From assembly GCA_963711565.1 (NCBI GenBank), contig CAVQEQ010000002.1, positions 240,181 to 304,180 of the forward strand: a DNA stretch of 64,000 nucleotides. Direction: 5' to 3'. The notes under the pieces were generated by a model. It was not told the DNA's origin. It saw nothing but the letters and a program-made list of their open reading frames with translations, and made no database searches. The position numbers and the translations under genes were made by a program. Positions 8,630 to 26,475 of this stretch are shown in pieces. Origin of the DNA: an uncultured delta proteobacterium. Lineage in GTDB: Bacteria > Desulfobacterota > Binatia > Binatales > Binataceae. Each line of letters starts with the position of its first letter. Position 1 is the first letter of the stretch.

Positions 8630-8638
8630 TTCGAGATC

Positions 8639-8668: not shown

Positions 8669-8676
8669 GCTTTCAC

Positions 8677-9003: not shown

Positions 9004-9025
9004 GACTCCGCGATCAATCGCGATC

Positions 9026-9080: not shown

Positions 9081-9185
9081 GTCTACAATAGAGATATCCG
9101 GTTTGGCGTGACGGTGAATTGGTCTTAACCGTATTGACCATCACCTTTGGTGATCTTACCTCAATCTCTGGCAAACTGGATGCCG

Positions 9186-9803: not shown

Positions 9804-9877
9804 ATCGCAAACGCGAGCCCCAATGCTTCGCGGCGTTGACTCCCGAGCCAGATAGGTTATTTGATATAGTCGCAGAC

Positions 9878-9933
9878 GGTGATGGGGTTCCGCCGCTAAC
9901 CGCTCCCGCTTGAGTGAGCTAATGACCCCTACT
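9878..9933 (+). promoter_or_regulatory. fluoride riboswitch #4, upstream of DUF190-CBS and crcB
   Basis: GGTGATGGGGTTCCGCC-GCTAACC-GCTC..GAGC-TAATGACCCCTAC. Confidence 0.93.
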
Positions 9934-10001
9934 CTGGTGTTGAGCACAGGTAGGGGCTTTTCTTTTGAAAGGGCTCTGCCGAAAGGTAGAGGGCCTTTTT
10001 T
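9926..10001 (+). terminator. two tandem terminator hairpins after riboswitch #4
   Basis: CCCCTAC...GTAGGGG-CTTTTCTTTT, then AAAGGGCTCTGCC-GAAA-GGTAGAGGGCC-TTTTTT. Confidence 0.75.
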
Positions 10002-10092
10002 GATCGCAGCAGCTTGCAATTTGCTACGCTCTCGGAAGAACCGTTCGCAGGGGCGGGCCTGCGCTTTCACAACGCCAGGAGGGCAGTGATCG

Positions 10093-11373
10093 ATGTTCAC
10101 CGGAAGGGCCAAGCAGGTGACGATCTTCATCGGCGAAACGGACCAATATCATCACCAGGCGCTGTACATGACGATCATCGAGATGCTCCGGCGTGAGGGA
10201 TGCAGCGGTGCGACCGCCACTCGGGGCGTTGCCGGGTTTGGGGCTTCATCGATGATTCACACGGCGGCTATCCTTCGGCTGTCCTTCGATCAGCCAATCG
10301 TGATCACGGTCGTGGATCGCCCCGAGCGGATCGATCGCATTCTCGGTCCGCTGCGCGAAATGGCTCCCAGCGCCCTCATCACGGTTCAGGAGGTTGAAGT
10401 CGTCCAATCGGGTGCTCCCTTCAAAGAGGGTCTACCCGACCTGAAGGTCTCGGAAGTGATGCGCCGAGAGGTCGCGACAGTGCATGCCGACAGTCCAATC
10501 ACCCAGGTTATTGAGCTGCTGCTCGATAAGGACTTCACTGCGGTGCCTGTCGTCGACGACCAGGGCAAGGTGGTCGGGATGGTGAGCGACAACGATCTGC
10601 TCTTGCGCGGTGGGATGAACGTCACGATTAGCTTGAAAAAGGCCACCGATTTGGACTACGTGCGCGAGCTTCACGAGTCGCTCGAGAACCCGAACCGTAA
10701 AGTGTCTGAGGTGATGACGCGCGAGGTCGTGACGACTGCTCCGGATACCATTCTCGCCCGAGCGGCCAGAGTGATGGTCGATAAACATCTCAAGCGCCTG
10801 CCGGTCGTGGACGGCGACGGAAAGTTGGTGGGTATCCTTGGACGCCTGGACGTGTTGAACACGATCGCGGCGGTCCATCTGCCTGAGTGGCATCCCGAGG
10901 CGCATGCCGTCGGGGCGCAGGCTACGGTGGCCGAGGTGATGAGCCGTGACGTTCCCACCGTCCATGAAAATGCCACGGTGGAACAAATTTTCGATCTGCT
11001 CGTTTCGTCAACGCACAAGCGCGTGATCGTCGTGGACGACAAGCGGCATGTAGTCGGGATCGTCGCCGACTCGGATCTCATTTCCAAAGTGAGCCGTGAG
11101 AGCTGGCCGGGGGTAATGGAAATCCTCATCTCGAAGGTCCCGCTCGGCCGGGCCAGCGTGGAGGCGCGCAAGCACATTCAGAAGTTGCGCGCCCGTTTCG
11201 CAAAAGACCTGATGACGCGTGATGTGGTTACGGTTCGCGAGAAGATGCCGGTCGCCAGCGCCTTGGCGCTCTCTGCGGAAAAGCGGGTTAAGCGGCTGCC
11301 TGTGGTCGACGGCGACGGTGAGTTGGTTGGAATCGTCGGCCGCACCGAGATGTTGAGGGCGTTGCTCGCCTGA
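10093..11373 (+). CDS. DUF190 (PII-like) domain fused to four CBS domains
   Basis: IFIGETD..HQALY..I..G.SGAT..RGVAGFG..IHTA.IL.LS...P; repeated VSEVM..VVD..G.LVGI CBS motifs. Confidence 0.9.
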   Translation: MFTGRAKQVTIFIGETDQYHHQALYMTIIEMLRREGCSGATATRGVAGFGASSMIHTAAILRLSFDQPIVITVVDRPERIDRILGPLREMAPSALITVQEVEVVQSGAPFKEGLPDLKVSEVMRREVATVHADSPITQVIELLLDKDFTAVPVVDDQGKVVGMVSDNDLLLRGGMNVTISLKKATDLDYVRELHESLENPNRKVSEVMTREVVTTAPDTILARAARVMVDKHLKRLPVVDGDGKLVGILGRLDVLNTIAAVHLPEWHPEAHAVGAQATVAEVMSRDVPTVHENATVEQIFDLLVSSTHKRVIVVDDKRHVVGIVADSDLISKVSRESWPGVMEILISKVPLGRASVEARKHIQKLRARFAKDLMTRDVVTVREKMPVASALALSAEKRVKRLPVVDGDGELVGIVGRTEMLRALLA

Positions 11374-11400
11374 AGAAGAGGAGGAGGGATTCGGCGGCTG

Positions 11401-11772
11401 ATGGGAGTGTTGTTTGTCGCGGTAGGCGGAGCCATCGGATCCGTCACTCGCTATCTGGTCGGTGGATGGATTGCCGCTCGTTTTGGCAGTGCTTTTCCAT
11501 ACGGGACGCTGGTAATCAATGTCACCGCGAGTTTCATCATCGGCTTTTTCCTGGCGTTCGCTCAGGAGCGAGTGAGCTTGAATCCGAACTGGCGCCTTTT
11601 TGTCGCGGTCGGATTCGTTGGCGGTTACTCGACGTTCTCGACCTTCGAGTATGAGGGGATTCGATTATTGCAGGAGCGGGAGATGCTGGTCGGTTCGGTC
11701 TATCTCATTGGGAGTGTGATCGCGGGCGGCGTAGCCGCGATAGGCGGGATAGCACTCGGCAGTTGGGTTTGA
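11401..11772 (+). CDS. crcB: fluoride efflux channel Fluc
   Basis: GGAIGS..RY, FPYGTL.IN...SF, GFVGGYSTFSTF. Confidence 0.97.
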   Translation: MGVLFVAVGGAIGSVTRYLVGGWIAARFGSAFPYGTLVINVTASFIIGFFLAFAQERVSLNPNWRLFVAVGFVGGYSTFSTFEYEGIRLLQEREMLVGSVYLIGSVIAGGVAAIGGIALGSWV

Positions 11773-11792
11773 TTTCGGCGAGCGGGCTTGAG

Positions 11793-11820
11793 TTGACTGT
11801 GATAAAAGCACTGCTAAACT
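11793..11820 (+). promoter_or_regulatory. putative sigma70 promoter for riboswitch #5
   Basis: TTGACT-16 nt-TAAACT with TGn extension. Confidence 0.6.
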
Positions 11821-11835
11821 TCTGTTGACAGAGTT

Positions 11836-11892
11836 GGTGATGGGGTTCACCGCCGCAACCGCCCTTTCCTGAGCAGGGCTGATGACCCCTAC
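11836..11892 (+). promoter_or_regulatory. fluoride riboswitch #5, upstream of hyf/Ehr operon
   Basis: GGTGATGGGGTTCACC-GCCGCAACC-GCCCT..AGGGC-TGATGACCCCTAC; platform hairpin ACCCCTACC...GGTAGGGGT-TTGATT (11885-11920). Confidence 0.93.
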
Positions 11893-12025
11893 CGAGGCGT
11901 AAGCTGGTAGGGGTTTGATTAGTTCGGATTCCCTACCTGGTCATTGGAACTCTCGCGCGCGGGTCGCGCCTGCCGGAGATCATCGCGCGAGAAATAACGC
12001 CGCGCAGGAAAGAGCGTAGCGGACG

Positions 12026-12976
12026 ATGGCGCGTTCGATCGGGTTCAACCTGCTTCAGGTGCTGTTCGTGGTGGCGCTCGCCCCGCTGGTGGCGGGGGTG
12101 TTGTCGCGTCTGAAAGAGATCGTGCAATCGCGGCGCGGTCCCAGCGTTTTCCAGCCGTATCGCGACCTTCGCAAGCTATTCAATAAAGACGAAGTCGTCT
12201 CGGAGCAGGCTTCCTGGATTTTCCGCGTGACGCCTCACGTCGTCTTTGTCGCGCCGATCTTCGTCGCCACGCTGATTCCCGTTCTAACCAGCTATCCGCT
12301 CTTCTTCGCGTTCATGGGCGACATGCTGGGCGGAGGGTTTGTGCTGGCATTGGGCGGCTTCTTCGCGACGCTCGCGGCTGTGGATACAGCCAATCCTTAC
12401 GGTCCGATGGGCGCGAGCCGCACGCGCATGGTCGGCTTCCTGGCTGAGCCGGTCTTCATGATCGTTTTTTTCACCGTCTCGTTCGTTGCGGGCTCCACCA
12501 TTCCCTACATCGTTCAGCAGCATTGGGTCACTCCGCTGTCGAACTTCTTCGCGCCGTCGCATGTGCTGCTGGTGATCGCCTTCGTGATGCTCATTCTTGC
12601 TGAAGCCGGGCGGATCCCAGTTGACAATCCAACCGGTCATTTCGAGCTCGCGATGATCGACGAATCGAAAAGTCTCGAGTACTCGGGCACCGGCATGGCG
12701 CTGATGAAATGGGGCGGTCAGATGAAGCTGCTGGTGCTGATGTGCATTCTGCTCAACGTACTGGTTACCCCGTGGGGACTGGCAAGCGACAAGAGCACTC
12801 TTGAGGTCCTTTTGGCGGGACCGCTCGTGTTGTTCAAAATCGGGCTCTTCCTATTGGTGTTGGTGGTGATTGAATCCTCGCTGTCCAAACTGCGGCTCTT
12901 TCGGGTCAGCGAGTTCCTGGGGGCTGCGTTCGTAACCTCGGTGGTCGCGATGATCACCGGACTCCTGAACTTCTAG
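12026..12976 (+). CDS. HyfC/HycD (NuoH-like) membrane subunit
   Basis: QSRRGPS.FQPYRDL.KL, GASR, AE.GRIPVDNP..HFELAMI.E...LEYSG. Confidence 0.92.
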   Translation: MARSIGFNLLQVLFVVALAPLVAGVLSRLKEIVQSRRGPSVFQPYRDLRKLFNKDEVVSEQASWIFRVTPHVVFVAPIFVATLIPVLTSYPLFFAFMGDMLGGGFVLALGGFFATLAAVDTANPYGPMGASRTRMVGFLAEPVFMIVFFTVSFVAGSTIPYIVQQHWVTPLSNFFAPSHVLLVIAFVMLILAEAGRIPVDNPTGHFELAMIDESKSLEYSGTGMALMKWGGQMKLLVLMCILLNVLVTPWGLASDKSTLEVLLAGPLVLFKIGLFLLVLVVIESSLSKLRLFRVSEFLGAAFVTSVVAMITGLLNF

Positions 12977-12984
12977 GGGCTGAG

Positions 12985-13665
12985 ATGGCGAACTCCTACG
13001 CGCTCCTGACTTCGCTGAACGGACTGGCTGCGGGGCTGTTTCTGATGAGTTCGTTCGGGCTTGCGGCGACGCGGCAGATGCAGGGGTGCCAGCGATTCTA
13101 TATCACTGAGTCGATCTGCCTCGTGGTGTCCGCGCTATTGCTCGGCATTGGCTTGCACGCGCCCGACCTGCTGGCGGTCGCCGCGCTCGACGCGATAATG
13201 AAGCCCATCGTGATTCCGTATCTGCTTAAGCGCACGGTGCCTGAGGAGATTTTCAGAAGACGTGAGATCGATCAGGTCCTGAACATTCCCAGTTCGCTGC
13301 TGATTGCGCTTGCCCTGACCTTGCTTGCCTTCTACCTGAGCGGATTTCTCCCGCCCGCAGCCGGAAGCATTGCGGCAATCAATTTGCCCGTCGGGCTCGC
13401 CGGACTGTTTATCGGAGTCTACACGCTCACGGTGCGGCGCGAGGCCGTCCCGCAACTGATTGGCATCTTCGGCATCGAGAATGGCGCTCTGCTTTGCGGC
13501 TTCGCCATCGCGCCCACTTTGCCACTGGTCATTGAGATGGCTTTCCCGTTCGACATGCTGATCATCGCGCTCGTGATCGGAATCTTGACGCGGATAACGC
13601 AGGAACGAGTGGGAACGACCGAAGTCGGCGCGTTCGCAGCGCTCAAGGAAGGCGCCAGCAAATGA
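12985..13665 (+). CDS. HyfE-like membrane subunit
   Basis: hydrophobic; K.IVIP..L and QLIG...IENG motifs; operon position. Confidence 0.85.
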   Translation: MANSYALLTSLNGLAAGLFLMSSFGLAATRQMQGCQRFYITESICLVVSALLLGIGLHAPDLLAVAALDAIMKPIVIPYLLKRTVPEEIFRRREIDQVLNIPSSLLIALALTLLAFYLSGFLPPAAGSIAAINLPVGLAGLFIGVYTLTVRREAVPQLIGIFGIENGALLCGFAIAPTLPLVIEMAFPFDMLIIALVIGILTRITQERVGTTEVGAFAALKEGASK

Positions 13666-15110
13666 TACTGCTTGCCATCCTTGCCGTGCCGCTGATTGCC
13701 GCGCTGCTCTCGTGCTTGCCAGTCGGACGCCGGGTAGCGCCGGCGGTCACACTGACATCCTGCACGGTCGTGCTCGCGATGGTGATAGCAGCGGCGATGG
13801 GCGTGGTCGCTCGGGGCTCAGTTGTCGCAATTGCCAATTGGGTCTCTATCGACGGCCTGAGTGCGTTGATTCTGCTGCTGGTCGCGACGATCGGGAGCAC
13901 CGCCGCACTTTTCTCGTGGGGTTACATGGCGCACGAACCGAGCACGCCGCATCTGCGCCGTTACTACGCGAATTACAATCTGTTCGTCTTCGCGATGCTC
14001 TCGGTGCCCATGCTGGCGGAGCCGAACCTGGTTTGGACGGGAGTGGAAATGACGACCATCCTCTCCGTTTACCTTATAGCGTTCGAGAATACGCGCGAGG
14101 CACTGGAAGCCGCGTGGAAGTACTCGGTGTTGACGATCATGGGAGGAGCGATAGCACTCCTCGGGTTTCTGGCGCTGTTCGCCGCGACACGGGGTCAGTA
14201 CCCCGGCGGCGCCTATACATGGCAGACGCTGATCGAGTTGGCGCCGCGAGTTTCGCCGGGCGTGCTCGCGACCGCCTTTGTTCTGATCCTTGTGGGGTTC
14301 GGTGCAAAGGCCGGGTTGGTTCCATTGCACACCTGGCTACCCGACGCGCACAGTCAGGCGCCGAGTCCAATCTGCGCGCTGCTCTCCGGCATCAAGACCA
14401 CCGTCATCCTGTACGTAATATTGCGCCTGGTGCCGGTGCTTAACGCCTCGGGAAAGGTCGACGTCGATGGATGGGCAATGGTCGTTGGGCTGTTTTCGGT
14501 AGGTATCGCGGCGTTTCTCATCATCCAGGTAACCGACTATAAGCGCCTGTTCGCATTCTCCACGGTCGAACACATGGGCATTATCCTTACCGCCGCCGGC
14601 ATCGGCGGCGCCGCCGGGCACTACGGCGCGGTGTATCAAATACTCAATCACGCACTGACAAAGTCATTCTGTTTCTTCGCGGCCGGAGCAACTCTGCTCG
14701 TCGTCGATACACGACAGATAGCTGAAGTGCGGGGTTTGATACGAACCTCACCGTCGGCCGGCGCTGCCCTGCTATTCGGAGGAATCGCGATCGCCGGGGC
14801 GCCACCGCTCGCAGTGTTCCTGAGCGAATTCTCGATTCTGCGCTCCGGAATGGCGGAGCAACACTACCTTGCAAGCGGCTTGCTCGCCGCGTTCGTTATC
14901 GTCGCCTTTTTCGGAATTCTCTATCACCTTAATCTTATGGTCTTCGGACAAGCCTCGTCGCCCACCGTCGATAGCATTCCGGTAAGACTGCCGCGAAGCT
15001 GCGTGCTGACCCTTATTCTGGCCGCAGCGCCAATCATCATACTCGGGGTCTATATGCCGGAGCCGCTTCACAGGCTGCTCGAGATGGCGGCCGACGGCCT
15101 GTCGAGGTGA
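13662..15110 (+). CDS. HyfF-like proton-translocating (NuoL/M/N family) subunit
   Basis: EAAWKY, GFGAKAGLVPLHTWLPDAHSQAPSP, KRLFAFSTVEHMG, F.SEF. Confidence 0.92.
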   Translation: MILLAILAVPLIAALLSCLPVGRRVAPAVTLTSCTVVLAMVIAAAMGVVARGSVVAIANWVSIDGLSALILLLVATIGSTAALFSWGYMAHEPSTPHLRRYYANYNLFVFAMLSVPMLAEPNLVWTGVEMTTILSVYLIAFENTREALEAAWKYSVLTIMGGAIALLGFLALFAATRGQYPGGAYTWQTLIELAPRVSPGVLATAFVLILVGFGAKAGLVPLHTWLPDAHSQAPSPICALLSGIKTTVILYVILRLVPVLNASGKVDVDGWAMVVGLFSVGIAAFLIIQVTDYKRLFAFSTVEHMGIILTAAGIGGAAGHYGAVYQILNHALTKSFCFFAAGATLLVVDTRQIAEVRGLIRTSPSAGAALLFGGIAIAGAPPLAVFLSEFSILRSGMAEQHYLASGLLAAFVIVAFFGILYHLNLMVFGQASSPTVDSIPVRLPRSCVLTLILAAAPIIILGVYMPEPLHRLLEMAADGLSR

Positions 15111-15113
15111 ACG

Positions 15114-16703
15114 ATGCCCGTCGTACTGACTCAAGTGGTCGAGGAGGCCAGGGCACGCTGGGCCGGCAGAGTTAGCGCGACTATCAATGATCGCGTCGAT
15201 TCCGCGTGTCAGCTTGAATGTGAACCGGCAGCTCTACCAGAGATTTGCGAGTGGTTGTTTTCAAGTCTGCGCTACAGTTTCGGCAGTCTTATCGTCGAGC
15301 AGCGAGCGCGATGGGACCTGCGATACGTCTTCTACGGCGAACATGACGCTGGTTGGGTGCACGCGCTTACTCATTCGTCCAGTTCCGAAAATCGTGTACC
15401 CAGCATCAGCAAACAGATTCACGCCGCCGATTGGCACGAACGCGAGGTTGAGGACCTGTTTGGACTGGACTTCGAGGGACATCCGCGTCTCGGCGATTTC
15501 GTCCTTCACAATGACGCCTGGCAAGAGGGCGTCAATCCGATGCGCAAGAGCTTTGATGCGGCTCAGCCTGTACTGCATCGTGAGCCCGACCTGAATTGGA
15601 AGCCTCGCCAGATCGTCGAGGAGACCGGCTCTTTCCTCATGCCGGTAGGACCGGTCTTTTCCGCCGCAACCGGACCGGTACACTTTCAGCTCGAGACGGT
15701 CGGCGAGGATGTCATCCGCGCGTGGCCGCGCCTCTTCTACGCATACCGCGGTCTCGAGAAGATCGCCGAGGGCCGGCGGGCTGACGATGTCGTGCTTATA
15801 GCGGAGCGTATCAGCGGAACTTCGGCGTTCGCTCATTCGTTGGCGCTCTGTCAGGCCGTGGAACGAGCCTGCCATATCGAGGTGCCGCCGAAAGCGCGTG
15901 CGCTGAGGATATTTATCGCGGAGCTGGAACGCCTGCGTCATCATGTTGCGGCTATCGAGGGAATCTGCGAATCCACTGCGCTTGCGGTCGCCGCCGCCCA
16001 GGCCGCGATTCTCGAAGAGGACCTCTTACGGATTTCCGGCGCGCTGACGGGTCACCGTTATCTTTTCGGGCTGAATACCTTCGGCGGCCTGACGATGGAC
16101 CTCGAAGATACAGTCTGCAAGCGGACAGCGTCGCAGGTCCGCGATGTGGCCGCGAAGCTCTCACAGCTTGAGCGGATGCTGAGCACGTCGAGTAGTTTTC
16201 TCGACCGGCTGGAGGAAGTCGGCAACGTGTCAGCAGATGTTGCTCGCGAATTTGGCCTGGTGGGACCGATCGCCCGTGCGTCAGGCGTCTCGCGGGACCT
16301 GAGGAAGGCACAGCCATATTCCGGCTACGAGCAGATCGAGTTTGAAGTTCCGCAGGAGTCGGAGGGAGACGGTTTCGCGCGGTTGCGGCTGTTCTTCCGG
16401 GAGGCCGCACAATCCGCCCGAATAATCGCGCGGCTCGCGGAGACGATTCCCGACGGGCCGTTTCGCGTGCCTGAGGTGATGCTGCGGCCCGGCGCCGCGC
16501 TTGGCTGGGTCGAAGCGCCACGTGGAGCAGCGCTCCATTGGATTCGCCTCGGCGAGGCCGGCGTCGTGGATCGATACCGAATCGTGACGCCGTCATTCGC
16601 GAACTGGCACGGATTCAGACTCGCGGCGGAAAATTTCGCCTTTCAGGATTTCCCGATAATCCTCGCAACCTTTGCGCTCTCAGTTCACGAGAACGATCGC
16701 TAG
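15114..16703 (+). CDS. HyfG/HycE-like large subunit (NuoC-D fold) lacking NiFe-binding cysteines (Ehr type)
   Basis: EREVEDLFGL.FEGHP, GPV, ELERL, GLVGP.ARASG, VEAPRG; ERISGTS replaces RxCGxC and ATFALSVHENDR replaces DPCxxC. Confidence 0.9.
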   Translation: MPVVLTQVVEEARARWAGRVSATINDRVDSACQLECEPAALPEICEWLFSSLRYSFGSLIVEQRARWDLRYVFYGEHDAGWVHALTHSSSSENRVPSISKQIHAADWHEREVEDLFGLDFEGHPRLGDFVLHNDAWQEGVNPMRKSFDAAQPVLHREPDLNWKPRQIVEETGSFLMPVGPVFSAATGPVHFQLETVGEDVIRAWPRLFYAYRGLEKIAEGRRADDVVLIAERISGTSAFAHSLALCQAVERACHIEVPPKARALRIFIAELERLRHHVAAIEGICESTALAVAAAQAAILEEDLLRISGALTGHRYLFGLNTFGGLTMDLEDTVCKRTASQVRDVAAKLSQLERMLSTSSSFLDRLEEVGNVSADVAREFGLVGPIARASGVSRDLRKAQPYSGYEQIEFEVPQESEGDGFARLRLFFREAAQSARIIARLAETIPDGPFRVPEVMLRPGAALGWVEAPRGAALHWIRLGEAGVVDRYRIVTPSFANWHGFRLAAENFAFQDFPIILATFALSVHENDR

Positions 16704-16712
16704 CGCGCGCGA

Positions 16713-17456
16713 ATGGCCAGCATGAGCAATTGGGTTATCAAAGGTCTTACAACCGGAATCAAGAGTACGCGCTACCCGCGCGTCGAGGAGACCGCCGCTG
16801 GAACTTCACCGGGACTTCCGGGCGCTGTTACACTCCCGCCGGAGTTGGCGCAATCGGTGGTGGCGCGCTGTCCGACTGACGCGCTTGAATTGGGGCCTGC
16901 CGGCGTCAACGTCAACCTCCGCCGATGTATCAACTGCTTCCGATGCGTGCGCGGCGCCAACAGTCCGGTCAACTGGGATCGCGGGTACGAATGCGCGGTG
17001 GCGGTTAATCACGACGATAGCGGGATAGACGGATTCGGCACGGCCTTCCGCCGCTCGCTGCAGATTCTCGTCGTCGATGCGGGCGATTGCGGCGCCTGTC
17101 TCAACGAGGTCAAGCAGCTCAACAATCCTTACTACAACTTGCACCGGCTAGGGTTCTTCCTGACTCCGACGCCGCGCCATGCTGACGTGATGCTCGTGGT
17201 CGGAGCGCTTACCGACCACATGCGAGTGCCGCTGCGCAAGGCCTACGACGCCATGCCGGGACCAAAACGAGTCGTCGCAGTCGGAGCATGTGCATTGTCG
17301 GGAGGAGTCTTCGGTCGCAGCTTTATTTGCGCCGGCGGAGTAGCTGAAATGCTCCCGGTCGATGTCGAGGTGCCGGGCAATCCGCCACCACCGCTCGCGA
17401 TACTGCATGGGCTGCTGGTCGCGGTGGGTCGAAAACCGTCCGCAGGTTCCAGGTGA
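16713..17456 (+). CDS. HyfI/NuoB-like small subunit with N-terminal ferredoxin-like region
   Basis: CPTDAL, CINCFRC, DAGDCGACLNE, TPRHADV, VAVGACA.SGG, VPGNPP. Confidence 0.9.
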   Translation: MASMSNWVIKGLTTGIKSTRYPRVEETAAGTSPGLPGAVTLPPELAQSVVARCPTDALELGPAGVNVNLRRCINCFRCVRGANSPVNWDRGYECAVAVNHDDSGIDGFGTAFRRSLQILVVDAGDCGACLNEVKQLNNPYYNLHRLGFFLTPTPRHADVMLVVGALTDHMRVPLRKAYDAMPGPKRVVAVGACALSGGVFGRSFICAGGVAEMLPVDVEVPGNPPPPLAILHGLLVAVGRKPSAGSR

Positions 17457-19600
17457 TCGCCATGGCCGTGCTGCTAGTTCTCATCCTGACACTCTGCGCC
17501 GCCGGCGTGATTCTTCCGCTCGTTCTTGAGCAACGACTAACGCCGTTAATCGTCGGCTTGGTTGGGGCAAGCGCGTCGGTCCTTCTGCTATGTTTCAGCG
17601 CGGCATCGCTGTTTGCCGGTGTATCTTTCAGCGCGACGCTATGGACCATTCCTTCGCTCGCAACGCTCACGCTGTCACTCGACAGGCTCTCCGCGCTGTT
17701 CCTTTTCGTTTCCGGCCTGGTGCTGCTACCTGGTTCGATTTTCGCCGCGGGCAATCTCAGCAAGTACATCGGCCGTTACAGTCTCAGGGCTTTCAGCGTT
17801 CCATACTTCGCGCTCTTTGCGACGCTGGTGCTGATCCCGCTGTCCGCCGACGCGGTCTCCTTCCTGATGCTGTGGGAGTCGATGTCGATCCTGATCTACC
17901 TGCTGGTCAACTACGAAGACAAAGTCGAAGAGCACACGCGCGCCGGATACCTGATGCTGGCGGTGGGCGAAGCGGGTACGCTGCTCATCGCGCTCGCGTT
18001 TATCGTCCTTGCCAACAACGGCTCGCTGGAGTTTGCGGCGATGAAGGACGCGGGCACCGCGCTTGGTGACTACGCGCGATGGGCGGTATTCCTGCTTGCG
18101 TTCTTTGGCTTCGGCGTGAAGGGGGGGATCATTCCGGTTAATTTCTGGCTCCCGCGCGCGTACACCGCGGCGCCTGACGCTTTCGTTCCGGTGCTGGCGG
18201 GAGCGACGTTGAACCTGGGCTTTTACGGAATTGTCAGGCTCAACGGCGACCTGCTGCCGGCGACTATGGTAGGCCCCGGCCTGGTTGCGCTCATCATCGG
18301 CACCGTCACCGCGCTACTCGGTATTCTCTACGCGACGACCCAGAGCGATCTCAAAACTCTGCTTGCGCACAGCTCGATCGAGAATGCCGGCATCATCACG
18401 GCGGCGTTGGGGGCGGGATTCATATTCGTCGCGTCAGGGCATTTTCCGATCGCGGCTATCGCGTTCGCCGCCGCCTTCTACCACATGGCGAACCACTCGA
18501 TTTACAAAGCTCTACTGTTCTTTTCGACCGGCGCGGTCGATTCGAGTGTGGGAACCCGGAATATCGACCGGCTGGGAGGCTTGATCAAGACGATGCCATA
18601 CAGCGCGTTGTTCTTCCTGGTCGGCGCGCTGTCGATCGCGGCGCTGCCGCCCTTCAACGGTTTCGTCAGTGAATGGCTCACGCTGCAGACGATGTTGCAG
18701 AGCGCGGAACTGGCCGCGACCGGCGTGAAAATCGTCTTCGCGCTGTGCGGCGCCGTTCTCGCGCTGACCACCGCGCTCGCGGTGACATGCTTCGTCAAGG
18801 CGTTCGCGATGAGTTTCCTGGGCATGGCGCGATCCGATGCGGTGACGCAGGCGCGTCCAGCGAGACTCTCTGCGACGGGTCCGATGACCTTTCTCGCACT
18901 GCTCTGCTTGATACTCGGAGTCACTCCGACCTACGTCATTCCGATCCTCGACGGCGCGATCGCGCCGATTGCCCAGCAAGCGCGCGCCGCGGATGCCCTT
19001 GTGCCGCCCTTCTTTGCCGGCAACCTCGATCACGGCGAATTGCCCGCGGCGTTCGTCGCGGATTTTCACGCCCTGGGTGCGCAAGTCGGACAAAGCGTCA
19101 TGCCAGGACGTGGTCTCGTCGTGATGCATCGCGGCGGCGCCGCCAATCCGGTGGTGTTCGCGATGTCCACCTCGTACATGGCGGTAGTCCTTGCACTGAT
19201 GCTGCTCGCTACCTACATCGTGTTCCGATTGATCGTCGCTCGAAACCGCGCCTTTGTGCGGCGCGAGGTGTGGGCTGGTGGAATCCGCCGCTTGCTGCCG
19301 GAGATGACCTACACCGGTACCGGATTCTCGAACCCGGTGCGTGTTATCTTCGAGGCGGTGTTCAGGCCCACAACTGTGGAAGACACTCGCGAGACTGTCG
19401 GTCTGCACTTTCGCGCGGCGATTCGACGCACGCGCGGTGAAAACCACGTGCTCGACCGCTTAGTACTTAATCCGGTCGCGGATGCGGCACTGTGGATCTC
19501 AAACGGCTTCGCCCGCATGCATCATGGCTTCCTGAACGCGTACGTTCTTTACGGACTAAGCGCGCTGATCGTGGCGCTTCTGATCGCGAGGTTCTCGTGA
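17453..19600 (+). CDS. HyfB-like proton-translocating subunit
   Basis: FLMLWESMS, GFGVKGG..P...WLP.AY, LLAHSSIEN.G, NHSIYKALLF, LPPFNGFVSEW. Confidence 0.92.
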   Translation: MIAMAVLLVLILTLCAAGVILPLVLEQRLTPLIVGLVGASASVLLLCFSAASLFAGVSFSATLWTIPSLATLTLSLDRLSALFLFVSGLVLLPGSIFAAGNLSKYIGRYSLRAFSVPYFALFATLVLIPLSADAVSFLMLWESMSILIYLLVNYEDKVEEHTRAGYLMLAVGEAGTLLIALAFIVLANNGSLEFAAMKDAGTALGDYARWAVFLLAFFGFGVKGGIIPVNFWLPRAYTAAPDAFVPVLAGATLNLGFYGIVRLNGDLLPATMVGPGLVALIIGTVTALLGILYATTQSDLKTLLAHSSIENAGIITAALGAGFIFVASGHFPIAAIAFAAAFYHMANHSIYKALLFFSTGAVDSSVGTRNIDRLGGLIKTMPYSALFFLVGALSIAALPPFNGFVSEWLTLQTMLQSAELAATGVKIVFALCGAVLALTTALAVTCFVKAFAMSFLGMARSDAVTQARPARLSATGPMTFLALLCLILGVTPTYVIPILDGAIAPIAQQARAADALVPPFFAGNLDHGELPAAFVADFHALGAQVGQSVMPGRGLVVMHRGGAANPVVFAMSTSYMAVVLALMLLATYIVFRLIVARNRAFVRREVWAGGIRRLLPEMTYTGTGFSNPVRVIFEAVFRPTTVEDTRETVGLHFRAAIRRTRGENHVLDRLVLNPVADAALWISNGFARMHHGFLNAYVLYGLSALIVALLIARFS

Positions 19601-19606: not shown

Positions 19607-19635
19607 TTGACCGGCGCAGCAGCGAGACTTAGTTT
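19607..19635 (+). promoter_or_regulatory. putative sigma70 promoter for riboswitch #6
   Basis: TTGACC-17 nt-TAGTTT, about 10 nt before the aptamer. Confidence 0.65.
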
Positions 19636-19644: not shown

Positions 19645-19691
19645 GGCGGTGGAGTCCGCCAATAACTGCCATCAGGCCAATGACTCCTTGC
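19645..19691 (+). promoter_or_regulatory. fluoride riboswitch #6, upstream of Zn-motif/phosphoesterase/HEAT/dynamin/MFS operon
   Basis: GGCGGTGGAGTCCGCC-AATAACT-GCC-ATCA-GGC-CAATGACTCCTTG; platform hairpin GACTCCTTGC...GCGGGAGTC-GTTCCTT (19682-19725). Confidence 0.87.
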
Positions 19692-19775
19692 AGCGGGTAG
19701 AGACCCGGCGCGGGAGTCGTTCCTTCCAACGTCTCGAGTCTCCAGCCCGCTCCGAACGAAATCGGAGGTCGAGTT

Positions 19776-20600
19776 GTGCTGGAGCGACTGAAACACAATT
19801 TTCGCCTGCTGCTGAATGCTTTTGACGGCGCGGTCTGCCCGCTGTGCAACGTCCGCACGAGGCTCGAAACGTCTGAAGCTGAGCGTCTGCACGCCAAGGG
19901 AGACCTCAACGCGGCGCTGTGCGCAACGCACCTTGAGTCGTACTTTGGATGTACCGACGATCGCTCCGCGCGGGCCCGGGTGACGCGCAGGATTCTCGAA
20001 ACGATAATTGCCGGAAGACCCGCGTGTCAGGTCTGTGAATACTTGCGCCGTGTCGAGGAACGGCTGGCGCGAGCTATACGCCGGCTCGACAACCGGATGC
20101 GATTCCGCAAGGCGCTGGAGATGGCGCCGCTATTCTGCCGGCGGCACGTAAACCTCGTCGTGTCCGATCCTCTCGTCGCGAATTTTGCCCAGGTGCAACG
20201 CGCAAAGCTCCAACGTCTGCGCGACGATCTAGCCCAAGCCGAAATTCTCAATCGCGAGAGCCTCGATGCGCTGACTCTGTCAGCTATCGCGTATCTAGGC
20301 GATCTTGTTCTGGAGCAATCAGCGCTGCAACTTCAGGATTCGGCCGACATGCCCGCAGTCGAGGTTTCTGAATTTGAAAGGTGGGACGACGAACTTCAAC
20401 TCAGACATCTGGGCAAACTCGAGAGCGAGGCCGCCAGCTTGCGCTATCGGAACGCAACGCTTTCCGAAGAGAACCGCAGACTCAAGGCTGCCCGCGTGGC
20501 CAGTGAAGGCACGCGGCGCGACCTCGAGCGCGATCTGGCGCAACTCCTCGCCGCGGCGGGAGAACGCGATTCAAATTCCTTGAAGACTCCGAATCAATAA
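19776..20600 (+). CDS. hypothetical protein, DUF6062-like Cys/His motifs plus coiled coil
   Basis: CPLC...LCATH...CQVC...FCRRH; heptad-rich C-terminus. Confidence 0.7.
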   Translation: MLERLKHNFRLLLNAFDGAVCPLCNVRTRLETSEAERLHAKGDLNAALCATHLESYFGCTDDRSARARVTRRILETIIAGRPACQVCEYLRRVEERLARAIRRLDNRMRFRKALEMAPLFCRRHVNLVVSDPLVANFAQVQRAKLQRLRDDLAQAEILNRESLDALTLSAIAYLGDLVLEQSALQLQDSADMPAVEVSEFERWDDELQLRHLGKLESEAASLRYRNATLSEENRRLKAARVASEGTRRDLERDLAQLLAAAGERDSNSLKTPNQ

Positions 20601-20622
20601 CGGTGAGGATCGAATCATCTCC

Positions 20623-21318
20623 ATGCGAATCTGCATCATTTCCGACCTGCACGCGAATATCGAAGCTCTCTCAGGGTTGCCCCGCGACTATGATGAGTTG
20701 TGGGTACTCGGCGACCTGGTCAACTACGGTCCCGATCCGGCCGAGACGATCGAGTTCGTGCGCTCGCATGCCTCGACGGTCCTTCGTGGTAATCATGACA
20801 ATTCGGTGGGGTTCGGCGCGGATTGCCGATGCTCTCCCCGCTTCCGTGCGATGGCGGATGCGACGCGAGACTTTACGGTGTCTGCCATCTCAGCCGCGGA
20901 CAAGCAGTATCTCCGCAATCTTCCGACCTGTGCGTGCCGACAACTCAACGGCGATGTCTTCTTCCTGTGTCATGCCACCCCCGCTGATCTTCTCTACGAG
21001 TATCGCCCGCCCGATTCACCGCTGTGGGCCAGGGAGGAGGAGGCGAGCTCAGGAGCCAACGTCATTCTGGCCGGCCACACCCATCTGCCGTTTTCGCACA
21101 CGTTCAGGAACCGGCGAGTGGCCAATCCCGGCAGTCTGGGGCAATCGAAAGCCGGAGACTCGCGCGCCCGCTACGCGATTTGGCAGGATGGTCAAATTGA
21201 ACTCAAGGCTTATCCGTATCCGGTCGAGAAGACCGTCGCCAAAATCCTCGCTCTCCCGGTGCCCGAGGAAGTAAAGCACGACCTGGTTCAGGTCCTGCGC
21301 ACAGGAAAGGTGCCGTGA
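20623..21318 (+). CDS. calcineurin-like metallophosphoesterase
   Basis: SDLHAN, GDLVNYG, RGNHD, GHTH, NPGSLGQ. Confidence 0.93.
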   Translation: MRICIISDLHANIEALSGLPRDYDELWVLGDLVNYGPDPAETIEFVRSHASTVLRGNHDNSVGFGADCRCSPRFRAMADATRDFTVSAISAADKQYLRNLPTCACRQLNGDVFFLCHATPADLLYEYRPPDSPLWAREEEASSGANVILAGHTHLPFSHTFRNRRVANPGSLGQSKAGDSRARYAIWQDGQIELKAYPYPVEKTVAKILALPVPEEVKHDLVQVLRTGKVP

Positions 21319-22310
21319 GCGCCGGGCACAATCGCGATGTTGCGGCGCGGCCAATTGCTGATCCGGTTGGCGAGGTGAAGCTGGACGAGCTGGCACGCAG
21401 GCTGAGATCGCTGACAGAGGGGGATATCGCCGTGATCGACGCGATCGCGATCGGCGCTCCCGCGATTCCGGTTCTACGCGGACTTTTGTTTGAAAGAGAT
21501 CCCGCGGGAATTTTCGAGCCGCGGCGGCGAGCAGTTCATGCGCTCATAGTTCTCAAGGCTACCGACGCGTTGAAAGAGTTTGTCGCGGGCTGGAAGCCGG
21601 CTGCGGATCCCGTCGAACGCTTCGGCGACGAGGTGGTGCTGGGCGCTGCGGCCAGGGCGCTCGGCACGACCCTCAATGATGAGTTCTACCCCGTGCTCGC
21701 AGCCGTCGCCGGCAAGTATCCGGTATCGGAAGTCATCGAGGCACTGGGATACTTCAGACGCTCTGAGTCGATTCCGATTCTGCTTGCGGCCCTGGCGGAC
21801 GATTTCAGCCGGACTGCGGCCGAACAGGCATTCAGATTACTCGGTCAACCCGCGGCTCCGGCTCTGATGGAGGTCGCGTCGCGTTGCGGCACAAATTTCA
21901 GCGGACGCGAAAGTCAATCGAGCATTCGGCAGCGGCGCAGCGCCTTGAGACTGATGCTCGAGCTCGGTCCCACTCGCGAGCTCTGGGAGCGCTTGAGCGA
22001 CCTTGTACAGGATTCGGACACCGAAATTGCGGTGCTCGGATGCCGGATCGGTCTCGCCGCGGCTGGCGATACTGCTGGGCGCGATTGCGCGTGCAGGCTG
22101 GTGGCGCTTCTGCCGCGAGCTCGATGGCCCCTCAATCAGGAAATTGAAGACTGCTTAAGAGACAACCTTGCCATAGCCTGTGAGTTCGTTGATCGCGCGT
22201 TGTCAGGATGGATAGGCGGCAGCACCAACGAAATTGAGCGCGCACGGTTCAAACGATCGCTTAGAAGAGTGAAAGCGCTCGGGTCTGCAAGACTCGACGC
22301 TGAGAGCTGA
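21315..22310 (+). CDS. HEAT-repeat / alpha-solenoid protein
   Basis: AIPVLRGLL, IEALG...SIPILLAALAD..R.AA..A...LG.PA.PAL; GTGA overlap. Confidence 0.7.
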   Translation: MSAGHNRDVAARPIADPVGEVKLDELARRLRSLTEGDIAVIDAIAIGAPAIPVLRGLLFERDPAGIFEPRRRAVHALIVLKATDALKEFVAGWKPAADPVERFGDEVVLGAAARALGTTLNDEFYPVLAAVAGKYPVSEVIEALGYFRRSESIPILLAALADDFSRTAAEQAFRLLGQPAAPALMEVASRCGTNFSGRESQSSIRQRRSALRLMLELGPTRELWERLSDLVQDSDTEIAVLGCRIGLAAAGDTAGRDCACRLVALLPRARWPLNQEIEDCLRDNLAIACEFVDRALSGWIGGSTNEIERARFKRSLRRVKALGSARLDAES

Positions 22311-22315
22311 TCGAT

Positions 22316-24799
22316 ATGTCAGAGGCGGCGTCGCAGATGGCCAACTTCGCGGGTGACGCGATCCGCCGCTACGACGATCTCAAACTTGAGATCGCGGCAA
22401 TCGCGCAGGCGGCGATGCTTCAGTGTGGGAAAGACAAGGACCCTGAAGGCGAACGTTCGTTCCAGCAGTTGCCGGCGCGGTTGGCGGAGGATCGCTTCAA
22501 CCTCGCCGTCGTCGGCCCGTTTAGTCGCGGCAAAAGCAGCTTGATGAACGCGATCCTTGGATTCGACGGCTTGCCTACCGGCATCCTGCCCCACACATCG
22601 GTCATCACGACAGTGAGTTACGGGCCCCGCGAGCGCGTCCTCGTCCGCTGCGACGGCTGGTCGTTGTCTGAGGAGATTAGACTCGATCAACTCGAAGAAT
22701 ATGTCACCGAACGCGGAAATCCTGGGAATCGGCGGCGCGTGGCGTTGGCGGAGATCGAGCTGCCCGCGGAGATTTTGCTGCACGGCCTCCACTTCATCGA
22801 TACACCCGGTCTTGGTTCCCCGATCGTCGCGAACACGAACACAACCGAACGTTTCCTTCCCGAGATCGATGCGGCAATATTCGTCTCGAGTTTCGATTTC
22901 GCCCTCAGCGAGGCCGACATTGAATTCCTCCGCAGAGTTCACGCGACCGTCGGCGTCGTGTTCGTCGTCCTCAACAAATTGGATCTCGTGTCGGATTCGG
23001 AGCGCGAAGAAGTCCTGAGATTCGTCCGCGATCGTCTCGATCGGGAACTGGGAATCGGAGGTTACAAACTCTTCGCCGTATCCGCTAAACGCGGGCTGGA
23101 AGCGAAGCTGCGCGGCGACTCAAGCAATCTGGCCCAGTCCGGATTGTCTGATCTGGAAGCCGCGCTCGCTATGTTCATGACCCGCGATAAGACTCGCCAG
23201 TTGGCAGTGCGCGTGATGGACCGGCTCGTCACGCACCTGCAGCGCGAGCGGATGCATGCCGGCTTGGCCGCGACCGCGGAGCGGTCTCCCGCGCAGGTCT
23301 CCGTTGCTCTCGACAAATTCGATGAAGACCTGGCGAAGCTCAATGCGCGCCGCGCGGAGCTCGTCACTAATCTTCAGACCATTGGAATTGAAGCACCGCG
23401 TTCCCTTGAACCTCGCATCGACCTTGCTTTCGCGAACCTTAGGCAAAGCGCCCTCAAGAAATTCAAACCTGATTTTTCAGGCAGCAGAATGTTTTCGAAG
23501 CCGGGCGCATTCGAATCCTTGACGCGCAATGTCTCGACATTTTGCGAGCGATCGCTCGCGCGTGAGCTGAGGGTCTACGAGGCCGCCCTGAACGAGCACT
23601 TCGAACGGAATGCGGCTGTGGTCCTCGCCCAAATCTACGCGCTGCCGGAAGAACTCTTCGCTATCGCGATAAACGGCGACGCAGGCAGTCGCGAGACGGC
23701 AACGCCGACCACGGATATTGCTCGGCCCGATGTGGTAATCGGCGGATTAGCCCGCTTCAATTGGAATCCGAGCCTGCCCTGGTGGGCGTACGTCGCTCCG
23801 TCGCGTTGGTTTCCGAGCTTGATTGTAAGCCGATTTTCCACGGCGCTCGATAATTTGCTTGCTCAATATCGGTCTAACGTCGATGCGGCAATCAGCAGCG
23901 GCGTACGCGAATATGGCGATAGAGTAGGCTTCGACATCGGGAGAGGGATCGAAGCGAGCGCCAATCGCATCAAAGAATTGCTGCGGTCGAAAGTGCCGGC
24001 GACCGGGCGCAACGTATTCGACGAACTGCTGAACCGAGCCATAGCTCAGCGACGACAATTCGACAGCAACGGGGAGGGCGAGAAGTCACCGAACAACAAC
24101 GGCTCGGTTAGCTCCCGAGGTACAGCCGGAAAGCCCTCGCCCGCCGCGGGCGCTGTGCGCGCGTGTTCAGTTTGCAATGCGGTAGTCAGAGCGGTTTTCG
24201 ATTTTCTGAGCAAGCTGCAATACGAATTGAGCATGGAGGACGGCGCTCAACGTCAGCACGCCGAGACGGGAGGCTTTTGCCCGGTTCACACTTGGCTCTA
24301 TGCGAAGATGACCTCGCCGTTGGGCGTAGCGCGCGCCTATCCGACCGTCCTCAAGGCTCGCGCAGCCGAGTTGAGCAATCTCTGTCGAACTGCGGAAACG
24401 ATCGAAGAACTGGCAAGCGGCGTCAACGATTCATCAAGTTTGCATCCAGACTGCAAAGTCTGCGGGGTTGCGACTGACGCACGTGACGAGGCGGTCGCTC
24501 GCCTGCTCACCAGCTTGCTTGCGAGCGACTCACAGGAGCCTCCCTCACTTTGCCTGCCACACTTGCAGCCGGCCTTGAGCCGATGCACTGATCTGAAAAG
24601 TGGCCGGGAGCTGGTGGGCGAATGCAGCCGGGTCCTGGACCGCGTCGCGGACGATATGCGCCGTTATGCGCTCAAGCGCGACGCCATCCGGCGAAATCTG
24701 ACCACTGCGAACGAACGCGAAGCACATCAAGTCGGACTCAGTAAACTCGCCGGTGACAGGCGACTGTCATTGACTGAGACCGAAGACGATCAGCTGTGA
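22316..24799 (+). CDS. dynamin-like GTPase fused to C-terminal DUF6062-like Cys/His domain
   Basis: GPFSRGKSS, LPTGILPHTS, DTPG, NKLD; C-terminal CSVC..GFCPVH..CKVC..LCLPH. Confidence 0.88.
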   Translation: MSEAASQMANFAGDAIRRYDDLKLEIAAIAQAAMLQCGKDKDPEGERSFQQLPARLAEDRFNLAVVGPFSRGKSSLMNAILGFDGLPTGILPHTSVITTVSYGPRERVLVRCDGWSLSEEIRLDQLEEYVTERGNPGNRRRVALAEIELPAEILLHGLHFIDTPGLGSPIVANTNTTERFLPEIDAAIFVSSFDFALSEADIEFLRRVHATVGVVFVVLNKLDLVSDSEREEVLRFVRDRLDRELGIGGYKLFAVSAKRGLEAKLRGDSSNLAQSGLSDLEAALAMFMTRDKTRQLAVRVMDRLVTHLQRERMHAGLAATAERSPAQVSVALDKFDEDLAKLNARRAELVTNLQTIGIEAPRSLEPRIDLAFANLRQSALKKFKPDFSGSRMFSKPGAFESLTRNVSTFCERSLARELRVYEAALNEHFERNAAVVLAQIYALPEELFAIAINGDAGSRETATPTTDIARPDVVIGGLARFNWNPSLPWWAYVAPSRWFPSLIVSRFSTALDNLLAQYRSNVDAAISSGVREYGDRVGFDIGRGIEASANRIKELLRSKVPATGRNVFDELLNRAIAQRRQFDSNGEGEKSPNNNGSVSSRGTAGKPSPAAGAVRACSVCNAVVRAVFDFLSKLQYELSMEDGAQRQHAETGGFCPVHTWLYAKMTSPLGVARAYPTVLKARAAELSNLCRTAETIEELASGVNDSSSLHPDCKVCGVATDARDEAVARLLTSLLASDSQEPPSLCLPHLQPALSRCTDLKSGRELVGECSRVLDRVADDMRRYALKRDAIRRNLTTANEREAHQVGLSKLAGDRRLSLTETEDDQL

Positions 24800-24847
24800 C
24801 GAAACAGAATGCCCCGGTTAGCATCTGAAGCTGGTTGGAGTTGTTGG

Positions 24848-26056
24848 ATGAATCTGCGACCCGGACCTGAAGAACCCGACCTCGAACCGGCTGGAGCGGC
24901 CGAACCCTGGCTGAATCGCAATATAGTCGGCATGGGAATCTCCAGTCTGTTTTCGGACTGGGGCCACGAGATGGCCACCGCGATCCTGCCACTGTTCATT
25001 GTGACGATCGGTGCTTCCCCTGCCGCACTCGGAGTAATCGAAGGCGCCTCCGACGGCGCGGCTACTTTCGCAAAGCTCGCCGGTGGACGGCTTGCCGATC
25101 GAGTGGGAGTGCGGCACCTCGCCGCGACTCTCGGCTATCTGATAACTGGACTCGCGACCGGCTCATTTGCACTCGCTCAGACATGGTTCGAATTGTTGAT
25201 CGCGCGCACCGTGGGATGGATGGCGCGTGGCGTACGCGGACCTTGCCGCGACAACCTGTTGGTCGAATCAGTTCCGGCCGCGAAGGTCGGCACCGCCTTC
25301 GGCTTCCATCGCTCGTTCGACACGCTCGGGGCGATCATTGGTCCGCTGTGCGCTATGTTTCTGTTGCATCGGATCGGCTTCCGCAGCATCTTCGTGCTGA
25401 GCCTCGTCCCGGGAGTCTTATCAGCAGTCTCATTTTTCTTCTTCGTCCGTGAACCTAAGGAGGAGCATCTCGAAGGCCCCCGCGCGTTTCCGGGATGGAA
25501 CGCCGCAATGCCGCCGGCGTTTCGGCGCTTCCTGCTCGCGGTTGGCGTCTTCGGGATAGGCGACTTCGCGCACAGCATGCTCATCCTTCGCGCGGCCCAG
25601 TTGATGGGCTCCTCGGCCAAAGCGATGAGCATCGCAGTCGGTCTGTACGTCGTCCACAACGTCGCGCATGCGATATTGGACTATCCGATCGGCGTCGCGG
25701 GCGATCGCTATCAGCGGCGTTATCTGCTGGCGGGATGGTACGTCGTAAGCCTGATCGCGGCCATTGGATTCGCAATTGGACCAACCAGCTTCGTATCGCT
25801 GGTGGTTCTCTTTATTCTCGAAGGCACGGTGATGGCTGCTGAAGAAACGCTTGAGTCGGCTGTGGCCGCTGATCTCTTGCCTGCGAATGTACGCGGCACT
25901 GGTTTCGGAATCCTGGCCGGCGTGAATGGGGTCGGCGACTTGGTGTCGAGCGTCGCAGTCGGGTTACTGTGGACTCATCTATCGGCGGAGGCTGCATTTG
26001 GCTACGCCGCTTTGATGAGCGCAATGGGTTCGGTACTGCTTTTCCTCGCCGTATGA
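24848..26056 (+). CDS. MFS transporter
   Basis: about 12 hydrophobic segments; SSLFSD..HEM, G.LADRVG, FGFHRSFDTLGA; GGAG before ATG 24848. Confidence 0.92.
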   Translation: MNLRPGPEEPDLEPAGAAEPWLNRNIVGMGISSLFSDWGHEMATAILPLFIVTIGASPAALGVIEGASDGAATFAKLAGGRLADRVGVRHLAATLGYLITGLATGSFALAQTWFELLIARTVGWMARGVRGPCRDNLLVESVPAAKVGTAFGFHRSFDTLGAIIGPLCAMFLLHRIGFRSIFVLSLVPGVLSAVSFFFFVREPKEEHLEGPRAFPGWNAAMPPAFRRFLLAVGVFGIGDFAHSMLILRAAQLMGSSAKAMSIAVGLYVVHNVAHAILDYPIGVAGDRYQRRYLLAGWYVVSLIAAIGFAIGPTSFVSLVVLFILEGTVMAAEETLESAVAADLLPANVRGTGFGILAGVNGVGDLVSSVAVGLLWTHLSAEAAFGYAALMSAMGSVLLFLAV

Positions 26057-26475
26057 ACTGGTCCCACGTCAGAAGGATCTCAATTGTGATGCGTGCGCTG
26101 GAAGACGCCACGCTCGAGATTGAAGGCGCCCTCGAGACTCGCGGCGATCGCACGCGCCTGCTGACTACGCTTGAGGACGATATTGACGACTCTGTAAAGC
26201 CGATAATCCTCGGTAAGATGGGACAGATTCGGTCGGAGATCCGCGACCTGAAGAGTTACTACGACCTGGAGTCGATTACGGTCTCCAGCCGGCGTCATAT
26301 CTCAACCAAGCTTGCGATCCTGGCGATCGATCTGACCGAGTGCCTCTCGCAGTACCTTCGCAGCTACGGCGAAGTTCCAGAAGCGGAACGAGCTACGCTC
26401 GACGAGCGGGTGTCACGATTGGAAGCGCTGGTTAACGAAGCGAGCAAACTCATCGTCTCCAATCGCAGAGGTTGA
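26053..26475 (+). CDS. hypothetical helical protein (140 aa), last gene of operon
   Basis: ATGA overlap with MFS; MNWSHVRRISIV...LRSYGEV. Confidence 0.7.
   Translation: MNWSHVRRISIVMRALEDATLEIEGALETRGDRTRLLTTLEDDIDDSVKPIILGKMGQIRSEIRDLKSYYDLESITVSSRRHISTKLAILAIDLTECLSQYLRSYGEVPEAERATLDERVSRLEALVNEASKLIVSNRRG

Follow-up and report, generated by a model that had tools for sequence, protein, structure and literature searches.

The 64,000-nucleotide stretch of DNA analysed here (the window; positions 240,181 to 304,180 of contig CAVQEQ010000002.1, assembly GCA_963711565.1) belongs to an uncultured delta proteobacterium of the Binataceae and carries an operon of six co-oriented genes, in which a fluoride riboswitch precedes a set that includes a dynamin-like GTPase. 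The open reading frames (ORFs), all on the plus strand, encode a 274-aa protein with a DUF6062-like helical domain of two CxxC..CxxH units (residues 1–175) and a long predicted coiled coil (193–268) (gene 1, 19776–20600), a calcineurin-like (ApaH/YfcE-like) metallophosphoesterase of 231 aa with intact metal ligands (gene 2, 20623–21318), a HEAT-repeat protein of 331 aa (gene 3, 21315–22310), a type A long-form dynamin-like GTPase of 827 aa (gene 4, 22316–24799), a major facilitator superfamily (MFS) transporter (gene 5, 24809–26056) and a 140-aa helical protein (gene 6, 26053–26475). Pfam matches within the operon comprise metallophosphoesterase, HEAT_2, Dynamin_N and MFS_1, with sub-threshold matches to DUF6062 in ORF1 and the C-terminus of ORF4. 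Homologues place the start of ORF6 at ATG 26053 and not at GTG 25969, and the start of the MFS gene probably at Met14 (24848). The original prediction, made from the sequence alone, described six tightly packed or overlapping genes with their own promoter and riboswitch. The packing is confirmed by the coordinates, ORFs 2 and 3 sharing GTGA and ORFs 5 and 6 sharing ATGA. The operon is real, conserved and riboswitch-led, and in it an uncharacterised domain connects two known kinds of system, fluoride regulons and bacterial dynamins. It very probably belongs to the fluoride regulon.

The leader of the operon consists of a predicted sigma-70-type promoter (TTGACC-17-TAGTTT, 19607–19635, +), a fluoride riboswitch aptamer (RF01734, 19636–19696, +) and a predicted off-state hairpin that would take the 3′ strand of the aptamer (19679–19722, +, from folding and leader alignment). 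The promoter falls below the consensus rule of the promoter scanner; the arrangement TTGA..N17-18..TA...T, 8–10 nt ahead of the aptamer, is kept in 17 of 21 non-identical homologous leaders, the spacers of which are divergent. The aptamer was recognised by the covariance model with a marginal 34.4 bits against the Rfam cut-off of 34, and its close homologues reach 58.6–65 bits with a covariance model built in this analysis. Its long-range pair is G-C in place of the usual A-U, and across 35 aptamers the G-for-A variant covaries with the partner position (19 AU, 13 GC, 3 other). In the same alignment, the P1 stem, the GGAGU/ACUCC pseudoknot and the long-range pair have 96.6% of cells paired with 31 two-sided changes, compared with 40–61% in the slid controls. 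The same aptamer variant heads 25 of the 28 gene-1 loci, and two of the three misses are contig-edge cuts. The promoter and riboswitch of the original prediction are present, although its written finding named neither fluoride as the ligand nor the island of fluoride genes around the operon, and these two are the main clues. No U-tract follows the hairpin at 19679–19722, and the leader differs in its lack of an intrinsic-terminator U-tract from known fluoride regulons. A translational switch acting on the Shine-Dalgarno sequence was also considered and is not supported, the exposure rising in only 5 of 21 leaders upon constrained folding.

The link to fluoride riboswitches extends to the relatives of gene 4. 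A genome scan returned 326 such relatives among 185,579 species, the best 80 of which constitute the set of dynamin loci. In 100 loci, the covariance model detected 258 aptamers; nhmmer, run with a profile of the alignment behind that model, detected 241, and none in shuffled DNA. By nhmmer, 75 of the 80 dynamin loci have at least one aptamer within 10 kb; in 52 loci it is within 3.5 kb, and in 18 it lies no more than 300 nt upstream of the dynamin. As these loci had supplied 29 of the 35 training sequences, eight loci were rescanned with the Rfam model, two short loci being left out. Aptamers were present in seven of the eight, two of them new and one directly upstream of the dynamin; only L068 had no fluoride aptamer on this rescan. 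The combined total is a riboswitch within 10 kb in 77 of 80 dynamin loci, and within 300 nt upstream of the dynamin in 19. The DUF6062-like module is sparse, found in 0 of 149 genomes across the phylum of Acidicapsa and in 8 of 149 within its family (even draws), and since the phylum draw held no module, the control was repeated at the family level. All 8 module-bearing Acidobacteriaceae genomes were scored together with 32 of the 141 without the module, two of which were dropped to leave 30. The module genomes have 2–10 riboswitches, with one within 5 kb in 7 of the 8, and 28 of the 30 others have 0–1; these counts were made at E ≤ 0.001 with 98 candidates per genome, the related genomes are not independent of each other, and the 80 loci may include some of the carriers.

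The dynamin assignment of gene 4 in the original prediction stands, as that of a probable membrane-binding dynamin with a predicted fold. The protein matches Dynamin_N at E 1e-23 and is arranged as a G domain, a neck, a trunk with a W/Y/R-rich tip (about residues 481–500) and the C-terminal DUF6062-like module (about 617–820). The G1–G4 motifs are conserved, with G67, G72, K73, T94, DTPG and NKxD invariant in 31 sequences. Its best fold matches are BDLP (2j69, E 1e-17), IniA (6j72) and Cj-DLP, and an AlphaFold model (pLDDT 76, pTM 0.52) has BDLP and IniA as best Foldseek matches, at TM scores of 0.3–0.4. The W/Y/R-rich segment lies between the trunk helices, is conserved in most long forms and is a putative lipid-binding tip; it stands at about the same sequence position as the lipid-interacting loop described for IniA, 480–492 (PMC6715688). 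Among 78 typed loci, 13 have the long form, 60 have a short form that lacks the trunk, and the remaining 5 are broken or cut. A GTPase tree, which omits type C because the motif filter missed it, separates type A from type B, a second dynamin also present in the window. Type C is a third dynamin of about 700 aa. A rule that a short form plus type C equals a long form plus a free gene 6 was found to hold only loosely, type C being a neighbour of 13 of the 60 short forms and of 2 of the 13 long ones.

The module shared by genes 1 and 4 is the second component of the operon. The claim that one CxxC..CxxH module occurs both as the stand-alone gene 1 and fused to the dynamin C-terminus was upheld by profile comparison (E 1.6e-7, probability 94%, 54 columns); pairwise BLAST of the two gave no significant match (E 0.069). 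In each family, all eight Cys and His positions are either invariant or conserved to at least 90%, and the motif suggests zinc binding. Gene 1 and the gene-4 module score 21.2 and 23.4 bits with DUF6062 (PF19538), below the curated cut-off of 27, while a gene-1 homologue (P0040) passes it with 28.4 bits; they are therefore called DUF6062-like. This link is accompanied by an ESM Atlas score of 0.94 and by matches to the family in 51 of 73 relatives at E ≤ 0.01. A PDB sequence search with the module returned no match, and fold searches with gene 1 returned only generic coiled coils or nothing. The module family has 528 representatives at E ≤ 1e-30 and 3,517 at E ≤ 1e-3. It is present at the C-terminus in 79 of the 80 dynamin loci, and 23 of 75 fusion loci also have a stand-alone copy.

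Stand-alone modules also occur apart from the dynamin. In Bacillota, where 19 of 27 loci were scanned (the rest being second matches in the same genes), stand-alone DUF6062 genes adjoin crcB, Na+/H+ exchanger or apparent H+-pyrophosphatase genes; a fluoride riboswitch lies no farther than 1.5 kb away in 4 of 16 loci, immediately ahead of the gene in 2 of them, and no such riboswitch was found in the 1.5-kb flanks of the other 12, which include the two best-scoring ones. A third stand-alone subfamily follows crcB in Acidobacteria. In one island (L135:5410-17100, genome G399), the order is DUF6062, phosphoesterase, HEAT, module and gene 6, with no type-A GTPase. Such independence of the module from the GTPase fits a putative adaptor or sensor role, as was originally proposed. 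The type-A module and the gene-6 domain of the L135 island both stand alone, each without its GTPase, and their neighbours include two crcB genes and a type-B dynamin. At two Bacillota loci (L110:1459-2277 and L125:1441-2221), the DUF6062 gene stands right behind a fluoride riboswitch and is followed by an apparent H+-pyrophosphatase or Na+/H+ exchanger gene, as identified by eye from the translations.

The remaining genes of the operon have more familiar features. In gene 2, D8, H10, D31, N57, H58, H117, H152 and H154 are at least 90% conserved among 41 sequences, and its PDB relatives include ApaH-like enzymes. The HEAT protein of gene 3 is the most constant partner of the dynamin: it occurs in 49 of the 80 loci, and in 31 it lies next to the dynamin on the upstream side. 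In the MFS transporter, conserved D50 and E54 in the first transmembrane segment suggest proton coupling. Gene 6 is, by sequence homology, a detached N-terminal domain of the type C dynamin: a hidden Markov model made from stand-alone gene-6 copies matches the N-termini of type-C dynamins in 17 loci (E 1e-16 to 8e-6). A single copy of this domain was found in the genome. A PDB sequence search with gene 6 returned only a designed protein, and the ESM Atlas only unnamed clusters below 0.9.

The gene order, which the original prediction proposed to look for in other genomes, is kept elsewhere. The 28 gene-1 loci include 4 duplicates, and the 13 non-duplicates with at least 6.9 kb downstream form the informative set; all six genes are complete and in order in 10 of these 13, mostly from Binatia, which are also the closest named relatives. 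Most of these loci add a small zinc-ribbon-HEAT gene before gene 6, which the window lacks. Other relatives have lost HEAT and dynamin, the middle of the dynamin, or the trunk and the MFS gene, or have a split dynamin. The 80 dynamin loci are distributed over Binatia, Acidobacteriota, Alpha- and Betaproteobacteria, Chloroflexota, Bacillota and Actinomycetota, with Mesorhizobium composti (L100), Acidicapsa dinghuensis (L101) and Rhodopila globiformis (L069) among the named carriers. Apart from HEAT, their partners are another dynamin (36 loci), a phosphoesterase (31), MutS-like proteins (30–33), DUF190 (22), crcB (22), ppa (15), MFS (14) and gene 1 (only 8). Enolase occurs in 36 of the 78 typed loci and cyclopropane-fatty-acid synthase in 19, and the other membrane- or pH-related neighbours are Na+/H+ exchangers and Ehr subunits. 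From these partner counts, the six-gene form is a lineage version of a wider core made up of the dynamin-DUF6062 fusion, HEAT and the phosphoesterase. A single dedicated machine of six parts, as first imagined, is not supported, given the rarity of gene 1 and the MFS gene and the relatives that lost HEAT, dynamin, trunk or MFS parts.

The operon stands at the end of a larger fluoride island. The window contains five fluoride riboswitches above the cut-off, between 1.4 and 19.7 kb, and all five that were found in the 4.84-Mb genome (150 of 720 candidates scored) sit within this island of about 25 kb. Besides the riboswitch of the operon there are four more at 796–19600, in a region that holds a universal stress protein (USP) gene, ilvD, a MutS_V pair, ppa, a His-phosphatase, DUF190-CBS, crcB and an Ehr/formate-hydrogenlyase (FHL)-like complex. 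The riboswitches lead USP/ilvD, the MutS_V pair, ppa with the second dynamin, DUF190-CBS with crcB, and the Ehr/FHL-like complex. The second dynamin, type B (584 aa, 6256–8010, −), lies behind ppa and its own fluoride riboswitch (8570–8638) and is a candidate partner of gene 4 or gene 6. Membership in the PADLOC Dynamins (LeoABC) system was considered and rejected, as only the two dynamins have matches, weak ones, and they are 14 kb apart on opposite strands. The Ehr/FHL-like complex has six genes (12026–19600, +) with its own fluoride riboswitch. It ends 6 nt short of the operon promoter, no terminator was found between it and gene 1, and in most Binatia loci gene 1 comes immediately after it. 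Although accessory, the island has an unremarkable composition: the tetranucleotide make-up is matched in distance by 34 of 150 and 52 of 150 random stretches, and the only tRNA of the contig is far away, so composition gives no sign of recent transfer.

With respect to known systems, the island resembles fluoride riboswitch (crcB motif, RF01734) regulons in the aptamer class and in the presence of crcB, ppa, USP, the His-phosphatase, the MutS-like pair and the FHL/Ehr-like complex. Associations of the crcB motif with mutS and formate-hydrogen-lyase have been published (PMC2864571), and the FRM operon of Enterobacter cloacae is described as ppaC-uspA-eno-gpmA-crcB-orf5249 (PMC5533749). The cargo here is different, consisting of a dynamin-like GTPase together with DUF6062 modules, a HEAT protein and a dynamin domain encoded on its own. 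The likeness to BDLP of Nostoc, IniA/IniC of Mycobacterium and DynA of Bacillus concerns the predicted G domain-neck-trunk fold, G1–G4 and the trunk-tip loop, together with a predicted link of expression to stress and the frequent company of a second dynamin. Differences include an identity of only 13–20% in structural alignments, the C-terminal DUF6062-like module, the absence of the trunk from most relatives and the fluoride riboswitch ahead of the genes. DUF6062 itself shares the two CxxC..CxxH units in a helical domain; the window copies are below its cut-off, one fused to a dynamin and the other to a coiled coil.

The word GTPase does not appear in the main text of a 2024 review (PMC11139923), nor GTP in the paper on the FRM operon (PMC5533749). 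A full-text literature search found no paper linking fluoride riboswitches with dynamins; the gene lists of Baker et al. 2012, which lie outside its coverage, could mention such GTPases. Among the matches listed for fluoride riboswitches with GTPases, none concerned a dynamin operon, judged by titles and abstract starts, and no paper on DUF6062 was found in the full-text search. Exporters and spare enzymes are the usual explanation of fluoride resistance, and we know of no physiological trigger for most bacterial dynamins. A riboswitch of known ligand ahead of dynamin genes in several phyla gives a direct and cheap test. The operon would also give DUF6062 its first functional context, and it could supply tolerance parts for strains that degrade organofluorine compounds.

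The operon is likely a membrane-maintenance arm of the bacterial fluoride response. The complete statement, a fluoride-induced, dynamin-based membrane-maintenance module, is given a probability of about 0.45; the regulon link is strong, whereas the mechanism and the binding are inferred. The linked and conserved promoter, aptamer and genes, which can be read from the sequence, would be turned on by fluoride entering as HF at low pH, by analogy with the established behavior of the riboswitch class. Gene 4 may then attach to the inner membrane via the aromatic and basic trunk tip of its predicted fold and, probably with the type-B dynamin, would seal or reshape the membrane and so keep the proton-motive force for CrcB, the antiporters and the Ehr complex. 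The DUF6062-like putative zinc modules, the HEAT protein and gene 6 could serve as assembly or regulatory subunits, and the phosphoesterase and the MFS transporter as co-induced, not obligatory, helpers. Gene 6 might play the part of the N-terminal assembly domain of Campylobacter jejuni DLP1, which has 119 aa and acts in a DLP1/DLP2 heterotetramer (PMC6104087). The likeness is that type C carries an extra helical N-terminal domain of about 140 aa and usually shares its island with a plain type B; on the other side, a search for sequence similarity between gene 6 and the Cj assembly domain gave no match. As the gene-6 domain is separate here and its GTPase was not found, the parallel is an analogy only.

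This reading is favoured because fluoride stress is tied to pH stress and fluoride export needs the proton-motive force (PMC11139923), because related dynamins maintain membranes (PMC6715688, PMC8844932), and because cyclopropane-fatty-acid synthase, exchanger and Ehr genes are among the neighbours. Several points weigh against it. The short form of 60 of the 78 typed loci, without trunk and tip, could not by itself bind the membrane in this way, the L135 island keeps the module and other genes without the type-A GTPase, and among the Binatia relatives there are several in which the dynamin is deleted or split. No type-C GTPase, the usual carrier of the gene-6 domain, turned up in this genome, and that fluoride damages membranes in a way that requires a dynamin is something we infer. 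The trunkless majority and L135 indicate that membrane maintenance is not the whole story, and they support the alternative in which the DUF6062-like module is the functional core that regulates fluoride or proton transporters (CrcB, the Na+/H+ exchanger, H+-pyrophosphatase, MFS). The fused GTPase would then be a nucleotide switch, possibly a second fluoride sensor locked by GDP-metal-fluoride; GDP-AlF4 is a standard transition-state mimic for dynamins (PMC6104087). This alternative is rather unlikely. It agrees with the riboswitches and transporter neighbours of the stand-alone Bacillota genes, with the subfamily behind crcB and with the stand-alone copies in the fusion loci, but most Bacillota loci show no fluoride riboswitch in the 1.5-kb flanks, the long form retains the full trunk and tip, and the module has no known structure or function.

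The genes can also be viewed as a loose set of accessory genes and of spare phosphoryl-transfer enzymes sensitive to fluoride, which form no complex and are overproduced to offset inhibition or to bind metal-fluoride. The neighbours are mostly such enzymes (enolase, ppa, MutS-like proteins, an AAA ATPase), genes are lost piecemeal, and the logic of overproduction has been published for enolase and pyrophosphatase (PMC11139923, PMC5533749). However, a spare presupposes a housekeeping copy, and the dynamin has none: no dynamin match was found in 36 of 36 same-genus genomes, 7 of which have any fluoride riboswitch, or outside the island in this genome. Moreover, HEAT, DUF6062 and gene 6 stay beside the dynamin without a recognisable catalytic motif, and the spare-enzyme reading of the operon is likewise unlikely. 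More doubtful still is a second, protein-level fluoride response built of three dynamins (A, B and C), in which the DUF6062 zinc modules and the gene-6 domain would connect GTPases with and without a trunk to the transporters of fluoride and protons, and the GTPases would be locked in an active, membrane-bound state by GDP-metal-fluoride itself. An anti-phage or general stress dynamin system of the DynA/LeoA kind, brought near fluoride genes by co-transfer, is very improbable. DynA of B. subtilis delays phage lysis (PMC8844932), the distribution is patchy, and PADLOC gives weak LeoA/LeoBC matches (E 1e-12 and 2e-10). Yet the best-matching stretch of LeoA is confined to the P-loop region, PADLOC matches none of the other five genes, and in 19 of 80 loci, which have rearranged neighbourhoods, the dynamin gene follows directly on a fluoride riboswitch of its own. 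Compared with these alternatives, fluoride-induced membrane maintenance remains the preferred reading.

Several minor observations concern the island and its relatives. A fluoride riboswitch lies ahead of ilvD, which encodes dihydroxy-acid dehydratase (1376–3180, +), a gene near 3 of the 80 dynamin loci. The tandem MutS_V-only ATPases (3387–6259, +) recur as the same pair near 30–33 of these loci. A sixth aptamer, below the cut-off with 23.6 bits (9019–9089, −), is upstream of the 8570–8638 riboswitch and is possibly part of a tandem ahead of ppa. The locus of Mesorhizobium composti is unusually dense, with ten fluoride-riboswitch matches in 21.6 kb by nhmmer and 8 by Rfam. Recurrent island genes that are not in the window include cyclopropane-fatty-acid synthase, an AAA_16 ATPase and a protein of about 125 aa without a Pfam match, the last in 9 alpha/proteobacterial loci (examples of such genes are L062:7699-8997, L078:12296-13129 and L072:9460-9846). 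The distal part of the window (48463–64000) holds an IS21-type element at 48.5–50.7 kb and a Mu-like prophage remnant with transposase, AAA, protease I, baseplate hub and tape measure genes.

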